Shown: in pieces, positions 8,055-11,445 of the stretch | Numbering within the stretch: the first letter of the stretch is position 1 | Layout: every line of letters starts with the position of its first letter | Origin: a virus | Taxonomy: Duplodnaviria; Heunggongvirae; Uroviricota; Caudoviricetes | IMG/VR virus record: IMGVR_UViG_3300029653_000033 | Reading direction: 5' to 3' (one strand) | DNA: 11,445 nucleotides | Position numbers and translations under genes: made by a program | The notes under the pieces: generated by a model | What the model was told of the DNA's origin: nothing | The model's input: only the letters and a program-made list of their open reading frames with translations | Database searches by the model: none

Positions 8055-8936
8055 TCAGCGTCCTGAATCGGTATACCCCCATACAAAACCAGGTTGGACA
8101 CTAAGGTCTGATAGCTTTTCAATCCCCACCTGTGGAATGAAGTCGGTAGCCCGAAAGGGCACCCACAGACGGGTATACGCACCCTCTGTGGACTCCTTTT
8201 TATCCTGATTTGGGCATTTATGAGGCGGGAGACGAAGACGCATTTCACCTTTATCGATGTAGCACGGTAAACCATGTTCGAGCTTTTCATGAGCCAGTCG
8301 GATGTGTGCCGCCAGCTTCATAAATTCAGTATCAATGGCCATCCGTTTAATCGTTTCATAACGACGCTCAGCCTGATCTTCACGAGTACCGCTAACATCG
8401 TTATAAAGCTCACACTGATAAGCGAATTCCCAAAAACGCAAATCAACGATCGCTTCTTTGAATTCCGCGTCGTCTTCAGGTGGCAATGCTGCACGGCGCA
8501 TCTCCAGCATTTCCATTGCCCAACCATCAAGCGGCACGATACGCCATTGATAAGGTACTCCCTCTACAGACACCTCAATATCGTCAATGAAAGGTTCCAC
8601 TTCCAGGACCTGGATATCTTCAGCCAGAGCATTCATATCGCAATCGTAATAATGCTCTTTACCGCAATGTTTACAGGTGTAAGTGAATGTCTCGACCGGT
8701 GTTTCACGGGAGCCGGTAAATATCCACCATAACGCGGTAATCCGGTCCTGCGCCGTCCATGTCAGGGGATCATGTTTCGCGGGTTCAGCCAGCAAGGCTT
8801 TTAAATACGCCGTTGTCTGTTGTTCTTGTTCCTCCGGTGTTATCGAGTTGAAACGCATCGCATCAGCAATATTTGGCTGACGGAACTGGATCAATTCAGT
8901 TGGCCGCGATGGTAGCGGGAAAAGGGGTAAAAGCAT
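8055..8936 (-). CDS. Hypothetical phage structural/assembly protein, 293 aa, with Cys motifs
   Basis: Complete ORF. Strong Shine-Dalgarno (AAGGAG, 5 nt, ATG). Contains C-K-H-C and a later Cys pair (LPCY...HKCP), which may bind metal. Sits immediately upstream of the tape-measure gene. Confidence 0.65.
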   Translation of the reverse strand: MLLPLFPLPSRPTELIQFRQPNIADAMRFNSITPEEQEQQTTAYLKALLAEPAKHDPLTWTAQDRITALWWIFTGSRETPVETFTYTCKHCGKEHYYDCDMNALAEDIQVLEVEPFIDDIEVSVEGVPYQWRIVPLDGWAMEMLEMRRAALPPEDDAEFKEAIVDLRFWEFAYQCELYNDVSGTREDQAERRYETIKRMAIDTEFMKLAAHIRLAHEKLEHGLPCYIDKGEMRLRLPPHKCPNQDKKESTEGAYTRLWVPFRATDFIPQVGIEKLSDLSVQPGFVWGYTDSGR

Positions 8937-8950
8937 CCTTGCTCCTTAAT

Positions 8951-9562
8951 TCAAAGAGAAAAACTAAAGCCCAGAAGGGAAGCCAAAGAACTTGAGGATT
9001 GGTTAAACGTGCTGTGCAATGCGAAGGTCATTGGGAATGACTTAAATTCCGTAACCTGATCCCGCGCATAGGTGACATCGCCGGTAGTGACCGGGAATAC
9101 AGTCATCTCATTTTCCAGTTTGGTTAAGCCGGAAGACAGCAACCGATAAATACGCACATTGAGCAAATATTTAGACGGTATATTCCCGGTACCGTCTGGA
9201 TTAATCACCCGACTTTTTGCCGTCTTAAACCAGTCCAAAACGAGGCCATCAACGGTATCCCTGACCATCATTGTTATCTGCCCTGGCGAACGCTCCGTTG
9301 GTTGAAGGATATTCCCTCCGCCGATTTTAATCGTTTCATATTCGATGCTGTAATCGTGGTAGGTAATATCTTTGGCAAAGAAGTCTGCTCCCTCCAGTCC
9401 ATCAACTTCGACAGAGAACTGCCATCCTTGCGCGAAGAGCATTTTGTTCATGATGATTGACGTCAGCTTACCAACTTCCCGCTCACCAACGCCGGAGCCA
9501 AATAATGTCGTCGTTAATGCCGAAGATACATAAGACTTTACTGAAGCAACATTAAGCCCCAT
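8951..9562 (-). CDS. Hypothetical phage structural protein, 203 aa
   Basis: Complete ORF. Shine-Dalgarno GAGGGGG upstream of the ATG at 9562. Separated from the upstream gene stop by 10 nt and from the downstream gene start by 14 nt, consistent with a packed operon. Confidence 0.65.
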   Translation of the reverse strand: MGLNVASVKSYVSSALTTTLFGSGVGEREVGKLTSIIMNKMLFAQGWQFSVEVDGLEGADFFAKDITYHDYSIEYETIKIGGGNILQPTERSPGQITMMVRDTVDGLVLDWFKTAKSRVINPDGTGNIPSKYLLNVRIYRLLSSGLTKLENEMTVFPVTTGDVTYARDQVTEFKSFPMTFALHSTFNQSSSSLASLLGFSFSL

Positions 9563-9572
9563 ATCAGCCCCC

Positions 9573-10180
<608 letters not shown>

Positions 10181-10292
10181 TAGTCATTTGTTCATTGAGT
10201 AGGAATATTGTTGTCTGGGGGGTAATCAGTGTAGGTGGAATGAGGGATATGATATGGTTATCACATAATCAGGTTGTTTTGAGTAAAACAAT

Positions 10293-10319
10293 AAAACGCC
10301 CTTTAATGGGCGTTTTTTT
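10293..10319. terminator. Bidirectional rho-independent terminator (stem AAAACGCCC / GGGCGTTTT, loop TTTAAT, flanked by A and T tracts)
   Basis: 9-bp GC-containing stem followed by 7 T on the plus strand and by UUUAUUGUUUU on the minus strand. Lies 30 nt downstream of the stop of the AT-rich secreted-protein gene and marks the boundary between the low-GC cassette and the phage late operon. Confidence 0.8.
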
Positions 10320-10348
10320 AAAACTTAAATTGACTATCCTTTCAAATA

Positions 10349-11128
10349 CTATTTTAATTCTATGTAATTTTTAAATTCTCCCTCATATTTATACATGATG
10401 CTATCAAATCCTTCCATTACATCAACGAATTGTTGTGAACATTCCGGCTTCCAAGGCGTACACTTACGAACCATATCCATTTTTTTCTTATCCTTCGTTG
10501 TATCGACTAAGGATAGGTACCCTATAAAATTCATCATCTGAACAGGATCTTGATTTGTGAATATATATTTGACGTTTTGCTTAGTAGGCGAAAAAGAATC
10601 AAAAGCAGGGAACATATATTCACCAGAAAAAGAGAGTGCAGCATCAATGACGTCTGTTGCAGGAGTGCAGTTGCTCAGAATTGGCACTAAGCTAAAATTA
10701 GCACCTGAGCACACTGCATATATATCATCCCCTTTTTTTAGTTTTAACAGAGAGTCTTGCTTTGAATCCAATATTTTCAATTTGATATAATTTAGTGGCG
10801 TTGCATTTTCCCCTGGAGTAAATAACTCTACAATTGGTTTATTATTCACCATTCTTATGGATTTTATTTCACCATACACAATTGGAATTGTGTTCCATTT
10901 TTCCTGAGCAGCAAATTCATTATCTTTAAAATCATTAACCAACTCAGATGGCAAATGATAACCAAATTGATTGTTCATTGCTTTCGAAGCAAATCCAGAC
11001 AAATAGAATGCCCTTACTAAATCATAATCTTTCTTTGAGGTAGAAAGCCAATCTGGCAATTTATTATCAGCTATCGCGCTTCCAGCAAAAATAGCACAAC
11101 AAAATGTTATTACATTAAATAATTTCAT
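10349..11128 (-). CDS. Secreted protein of unknown function, ~259 aa mature-plus-signal (cargo gene in low-GC cassette)
   Basis: ORF in a markedly AT-rich region. Most likely start is ATG at 11128 (MKLFNVITFCCAIFAGSAIA-DNK...), giving a typical Sec signal peptide with an AxA cleavage site. Alternative starts are ATG at 11143 and GTG at 11161 (track). Two Cys pairs in the mature part (C-x13-C and C-x6-C) suggest periplasmic disulfides. No family recognised. Confidence 0.7.
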   Translation of the reverse strand: MKLFNVITFCCAIFAGSAIADNKLPDWLSTSKKDYDLVRAFYLSGFASKAMNNQFGYHLPSELVNDFKDNEFAAQEKWNTIPIVYGEIKSIRMVNNKPIVELFTPGENATPLNYIKLKILDSKQDSLLKLKKGDDIYAVCSGANFSLVPILSNCTPATDVIDAALSFSGEYMFPAFDSFSPTKQNVKYIFTNQDPVQMMNFIGYLSLVDTTKDKKKMDMVRKCTPWKPECSQQFVDVMEGFDSIMYKYEGEFKNYIELK

Positions 11129-11135
11129 TTTCCAT

Positions 11136-11330
11136 TCACTCATTAATCGGTTTAAACTCACTAATTAATTCACCAAGACTATTTGGGTATGCTTTATAAA
11201 TAACATACTCCGAAGAGCCATCTGAATATTGGTAAGCCCCATAACAGATCAGTTTATTTATTCCTTTCTGAATAGTTTTTTGATTATAAGAATCAACCAC
11301 TGTTATTCCATATGACGGTAATGACTCCAA
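11136..11330 (-). pseudogene. 3' remnant of a gene apparently truncated by the IS1 insertion (64-codon ORF reading out of the IS1 terminal repeat)
   Basis: This frame is open from inside the IS1 end: a stop at 11348..11346 lies within IS1, and the first start-like codon is TTG at 11330 inside the IRR. There is no internal ATG. The ORF ends overlapping the start region of the secreted-protein gene. Same AT-rich composition as the cassette. Confidence 0.45.
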
Positions 11331-11445
11331 CTTATTGATAGTGTTTTATGTTCAGATAATGCCCGATTACTTTGTCATGCAGCTCCACCGATTTTGAGAA
11401 CGACAGCGACTTCCGTCCCAGCCGTGCCAGGTGCTGCCTCAGATT
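11317..11445 (-). mobile_element. IS1 insertion sequence, right end (IRR at 11317..11339), element continues beyond the window
   Basis: Sequence GGTAATGACTCCAACTTATTGATAGTGTTTTATGTTCAGATAATGCCCGAT.ACTTTGTCATGCAGCTCCACCGATTTTGAGAACGACAGCGACTTCCGTCCCAGCCGTGCCAGGTGCTGCCTCAGATT matches the IS1 right end as I recall it (one or two differences from the canonical copy). Confidence 0.93.
11332..11445 (-). CDS. insB: IS1 transposase InsB, C-terminal 37 codons (partial, 5' end outside window)
   Basis: Minus-strand translation ...[37 protein letters not shown] with stop TAA at 11334..11332, which is the known InsB C-terminus. Confidence 0.9.

Follow-up and report, generated by a model that had tools for sequence, protein, structure and literature searches.

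Insertion of an IS1-based transposon, most likely a composite element, in the simB gene of a P1-like phage-plasmid

The sim region at the end of the window

The whole stretch of DNA analysed here (11,445 nt, hereafter the window) is a segment of a phage P1-like plasmid. All of its genes lie on the minus strand, in the order partial tail-fibre gene S, R, 16, bplA, pmgA, sit, pmgB, tub, pmgC, simC and a remnant of simB. In P1, simA, simB and simC lie next to c4-icd-ant and are annotated together with the promoters PsimA and PsimB; simB (P1_gp042) encodes SimB, a protein of 111 aa listed as a 'putative superimmunity accessory function'. The window is 99.1% identical to P1 at the DNA level over simB/simC. 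Besides sequence, its remnant shares with P1 simB the place directly upstream of simC, the overlap of stop and start codons, and the neighbours pmgC, tub, pmgB and sit.

The GC content of the sim region is 31-38%, compared to 45-49% for the neighbouring genes, and simABC has been described as a low-GC variable region in P1-like phage-plasmids (PMC9603915). According to PMC8546580, which cites Devlin 1982 and Kliem and Dreiseikelmann 1989, Sim blocks the entry of superinfecting P1 DNA. Since simA, simB and simC are all non-essential for P1 lytic growth (PMC10695390), an insertion in simB is tolerable.

A separate peculiarity of the window concerns sit (4581-7973), the tape measure/transglycosylase gene. 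Here the window carries T5014, by which the minus-strand codon at 5013-5015 (codon 987 of 1,130) changes from TCA to the stop codon TAA. T5014 is absent from the record of E. coli ATCC 98082 and from the two metagenome contigs L007 and L008, all described below; the ATCC 98082 record and L007 have G instead. As sit is essential in P1 (PMC10695390), the stop at codon 987 means that the window's prophage copy may be tail-defective.

The features around the insertion junction are collected in Table 1. simC is intact, and its DNA is identical to that of the IS1-free plasmid pPC6-mcr1. Its start is ambiguous: in P1 the gene begins with the ATG at 11143, so that start and simB stop overlap as ATGAGTGA, PGAP places the start at the ATG at 11128, giving the leader MKLFNVITFCCAIFAGSAIA, and the longest ORF begins with a GTG at 11161. 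In Pfam, neither SimB nor SimC nor the remnant had a match above threshold; below it, there were matches to TcpS, MWFE and tRNA_anti-like. The last of these, the OB-fold domain PF12869, was matched by SimC residues 62-154 with E=0.001 and 19.1 bits, below the cut-off of 23.5.

Table 1. Features at the simC-simB-IS1 junction (window coordinates)
Feature	Position	Strand	Basis and description
simC, P1 superimmunity gene	10349..11128	minus	Intact, 259 aa from the PGAP start; phrog_14355, E=3.6e-187
64-codon ORF	11136..11330	minus	ORF listing and translation; TTG start, 64 aa; TTG plus three more codons from the IS1 IRR, one codon (CCG) across the junction, simB codons 53-111, TGA stop
Native simB 3' remnant	11136..11316	minus	Residues 53-111 of the 111-aa P1 SimB
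Target-site duplication, window-side copy	11308..11316		9 bp, CCATATGAC
IS1 IRR end, including the insB 3' end	11317..11445 (129 nt, to the window end)	minus	Identity to IS1

The simB remnant is identical in sequence to IS1-free plasmids up to position 11316. Against the SimB family profile phrog_14329 it aligned with positions 43-105 of 105, a partial match that covers the C-terminal part only; its E value of 8e-38 argues that the match between the ORF and simB is not due to chance. An exact look-up of the remnant's product (MESLPSYG...) returned no match on record. The insertion junction falls within simB codon 52. Unlike P1 simB, the window keeps only the codons that follow, the first 52 being absent from it and split off, together with simA and the predicted promoters, by the insertion.

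P1 SimB starts with a hydrophobic, signal-peptide-like leader (MRRSGFMLIRLFLVLSFLTFNVFA followed by DEVDF), which was called a signal peptide by eye, without a predictor, and for which cleavage is predicted after residue 24. The remnant is without this leader and without 28 further residues of the predicted mature protein. A complete SimB with its N-terminal leader was not found in the window; only P1 and the far-side simB fragment of relatives showed the leader. The neighbourhood of SimB is found in two parts as well, the simC side in the window and the simA and c4 side, that is the c4-icd-ant immunity region, past the insertion in relatives.

The initial annotation had described a 64-codon ORF whose TTG start lies inside the IS1 IRR and whose frame stays open for five codons beyond it into IS1. 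Both observations were confirmed, and translation gave NTINK between a stop codon inside IS1 and the TTG. It had also taken this TTG as the only start-like codon, which is wrong: an in-frame GTG lies at 11300-11298, within native simB sequence. The 64-codon ORF would exist only because the simB frame happens to be open for 10 codons into the inverted repeat and so reaches a TTG. Judged from its sequence, it is best read as a simB pseudogene fragment.

IS1 sequence opens at 11317 with GGTAATGACTCC, and the IRR reads GGTAATGACTCCAACTTATTGATAGTG, which shows the terminal inverted repeat GGTRATG. With IS1 copies from phage records, that of P1 itself among them, the IS1 part of the window shares 99.2% identity. 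insAB runs in the same direction as simB and simC, and the insB stop codon TAA (11334-11332) ends 1 nt upstream of the TTG. P1 has a resident IS1 between isaA and isaB, likewise in a low-GC variable region; insertion sequence and type of phage-plasmid are the same in both cases. Unlike the resident copy, the one described here lies in simB and not in the isaA/isaB region, which is outside the window; it is an additional insertion.

Empty sites and the target-site duplication in relatives

If IS1 had inserted into a pre-existing gene, as initially proposed, relatives that are free of it should carry that gene in one piece, and they do. Hundreds of IS1-free relatives read uninterrupted across the site, with CCATATGAC directly followed by GATAATATT; at least 138 plasmid records have the uninterrupted site, reading CCATATGAC GATAATATTTCG. 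The alignment of the window to IS1-free plasmids diverges exactly between 11316 and 11317. In the IS1-free relatives a full-length simB runs across the site and encodes 111 aa in P1, 105 aa by PGAP, or a simA-simB fusion of 156 aa. That is, the comparison revealed a larger intact gene, and no relative with a small gene starting at this place.

Two variants of the region were seen along the way. In many P7-like mcr-1 plasmids the simA stop codon is changed from TAA to AAA (about 4176-4178 in pPC6-mcr1, L001, versus 2976-2978 in P1, L004). This fuses simA and simB, and the 156-aa ORF comprises two hydrophobic leader-like segments. The Escherichia albertii plasmid pEA24_3 (L003 3001-3770) carries a different IS1 copy at the opposite side of simC, with simB intact, and has unrelated genes in place of the pmgC-sit morphogenetic genes.

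The window-side flank had been given correctly as TTCCATATGAC, and a search for an 8-9 bp target-site duplication had been suggested as a check. At empty sites CCATATGAC occurs once. In relatives with the same junction these 9 bp lie on both sides of the inserted DNA; NZ_CP034659.1 and four viral contigs have the second copy, which is outside the window, after the far end of the IS1 DNA. The duplication expected of IS1 is thus present in the relatives that share the junction. IS1 prefers AT-rich targets and makes 9-bp duplications. The insertion would have taken place at the AT-rich target CCATATGAC, inside simB codons 52-55, duplicating its 9 bp.

The IS1-ysgD-corA-IS1 unit

The nearest complete record, NZ_CP034659.1, comes from E. 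coli ATCC 98082 and is a mosaic plasmid of 454 kb. Positions 1-11316 of the window aligned to it over 11,316 of 11,316 nt, with 2 mismatches and the same junction. In all, the window differs from this record at three positions, one of them inside IS1, and the two are not the same sequence. A full 768-bp IS1 is present at the junction of the ATCC 98082 record, while the window ends 129 nt into its own copy; within a query of 446 nt, the window's IS1 differed from this IS1A-family copy by 1 nt (T11368). T11368 is synonymous in insB and private to the window. G8297, another difference from the ATCC 98082 record, is synonymous in pmgB and common to other P1-like plasmids.

In NZ_CP034659.1 the 3' part of simB is followed by CCATATGAC, an IS1 of 768 bp, a ysgD-corA segment of 1,706 bp, an inverted IS1 of 768 bp, a second CCATATGAC, the 5' part of simB and simA, and then by the c4 operator/promoter region. 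The insert measures 3,242 bp (L002 5018-8259), and both of its outer ends are IRR. When the insert and one copy of the duplication were excised in silico, simA and a 111-aa simB were restored, with 1 mismatch in 636 nt to an IS1-free plasmid. The expectation that the 5' part of the gene lies beyond IS1 held in part: the 5' half of simB is there in relatives, with its frame continuing, but behind a composite of 3,242 bp and not behind one IS1 of 768 bp.

The inner 1,706 bp match corA regions of E. coli chromosomes at 99.9% identity. The whole 3,242-bp unit also occurs in the Salmonella Senftenberg plasmid pSSE-ATCC-43845 (L015 783-4024), where it is flanked by a different 9-bp duplication, GCCGTCGGC. 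With a query made up of the inner segment and, on either side, 50 nt of the adjoining IS1, we detected 57 plasmid records with at least 80% of that query, across E. coli, Salmonella and Enterobacter. The hallmarks of a composite transposon (two IS1 copies with cargo, one duplication round the whole unit, and another site with another duplication) were observed in relatives only. IS1-ysgD-corA-IS1 is a mobile composite unit that moves between plasmid types. Across both junctions in simB the composite is resolved in one complete record, and all short-read contigs break inside IS1.

Tn1681-type elements are IS1 composite transposons with inverted IS1 arms round a captured gene, and Tn9 is their direct-repeat counterpart. 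Like Tn1681-type elements, the corA unit has two full 768-bp IS1 copies round a captured chromosomal segment, and 9-bp duplications at two sites. Unlike them, it carries as cargo E. coli ysgD-corA (corA: magnesium/cobalt transporter) and not a toxin or resistance gene. We found no publication that names the IS1-corA-IS1 unit or describes it as a transposon. In a preprint on IncHI plasmids, corA appears only in a list of variable accessory genes.

We conclude, with a probability of about 0.88, that an IS1-based transposon, most likely the 3,242-bp composite, inserted in simB of a P1-like phage-plasmid, and that the 64-codon ORF is the resulting pseudogene fragment. The gene hit would be the middle one of the simA-simB-simC superimmunity operon. 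The inserted element would be IS1-ysgD-corA-IS1 with inverted arms and its IRR ends outward, as in the nearest complete record. The window would represent the left junction only, with simC, the 3' remnant of simB and the first stretch of IS1 from its IRR end. As the window ends within IS1, it is the relatives that make the composite, rather than a single IS1, the most likely content of its own source.

The single-element alternative, namely one 768-bp IS1 in simB of the window's source, with its IRR on the simC side and its IRL on the simA side, is unlikely; it would make the composite of the relatives a separate or later event. Simple IS1 insertions are far commoner than composite ones, the one IS1 end in the window fits either structure, and the window's IS1 carries a SNP of its own, T11368. 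However, every far-side junction found at this site is IRR-type (in the ATCC 98082 record, in the plasmid NZ_CP061756.1 and in four viral contigs), while the IRL-type far junction expected from a single IS1 had 0 hits in viral contigs. Moreover, the record to which the window's flank shows only 2 mismatches is itself a carrier of the composite.

Recurrence of the allele and expression beside IS1

Several samples have the simB-insertion allele, which was detected in an E. coli strain, in two metagenome contigs and in four viral contigs. The near junction is present in the two metagenome contigs L007 and L008, with 0 hits in viral contigs, and a junction scan of representative genomes gave 0 hits. 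Between L007 and the window, the only differences are at the three positions where the window is private or variable. L008 differs from the window at 87 positions, almost all in sit, a concentration that fits backbone recombination. The far IRR-type junction is present in four IMG/VR contigs, which continue into the P1 immunity region and match the P1 locus, at about 96% identity, as far as the end of that locus in kilA. This far junction in simB is shared by NZ_CP061756.1, an IncY (P1-type) plasmid in which IS26 cuts or replaces the left IS1 arm (L013 702-1550). IS26 also bounds contig L007 (1-52) at window position 4296. In the ATCC 98082 record, IS26 ends cut the P1-like element at the start of c4 (L006 about 25143), approximately 880 bp beyond the far junction, in the immunity region.

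One could read this recurrence as selection and not hitch-hiking, the event being a functional rewiring or cargo acquisition in which host corA was gained on an IS1 composite and became transducible, and simC, the superinfection-exclusion gene, came off its native promoters and under insAB read-through; we regard this as quite improbable. simC is probably poorly expressed, its expression reduced by polarity, since the predicted PsimA and PsimB now lie more than 3 kb away.

The suggestion in the initial annotation that the IS1 end might supply transcription or translation signals, should the gene still be expressed, found no backing in the sequence. A scan of 10900-11445 gave 0 sigma-70-like promoters or terminators. 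By eye, no acceptable -10 hexamer was seen at a distance of 16-18 nt from the outward TTGGAG in the IRR. No Shine-Dalgarno sequence precedes the TTG (the 20 nt upstream read CATAAAACACTATCAATAAG) or the in-frame GTG. Weak read-through or reinitiation is conceivable but unsupported; it is suggested by the co-orientation of insAB and by the insB stop codon 1 nt before the TTG. IS1 ends reportedly form hybrid promoters in some contexts. Expression of the remnant as a new small protein, or of simC from the IS1 end, could be imagined with the TTG as start codon, through reinitiation once the insB stop is passed, or by transcripts of the insAB promoter reading through, and we consider it very unlikely. 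No promoter-like pair of hexamers lies at the junction, neither candidate start codon has a Shine-Dalgarno sequence, and the product would be without the leader of a protein predicted as secreted. In addition, translation of the insB frame requires a rare frameshift, and polarity is a classical effect of IS1. From these features we infer that the remnant is silent.

A further reading would make the junction the endpoint of a recombination or deletion, such as an adjacent deletion mediated by IS1 or a cointegrate, with the 5' half of simB lost or distant in the window's source. It is hardly credible. Insertion sequences have indeed rearranged the related records heavily, as IS26 has done in the ATCC 98082 record, in L007 and in NZ_CP061756.1, but relatives show this breakpoint together with 9 bp duplicated on either side and with the other half of simB, which argues for transposition and not deletion.

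The insertion of an IS1-based transposon in simB is an ordinary case of a gene disrupted by IS1; the region hit is accessory, AT-rich and non-essential, and the phage-plasmid is well studied. IS1, simB and IS1 composite transposons are already known, and the exact junction is in GenBank, unannotated there. We recommend annotating the 64-codon ORF as a pseudogene fragment of simB and not as a gene. Of modest value is that the 3.2-kb IS1-corA-IS1 unit moves as a composite transposon between plasmid types. The simB-insertion allele can conveniently mark the lineage of a P1-like element circulating in several samples.
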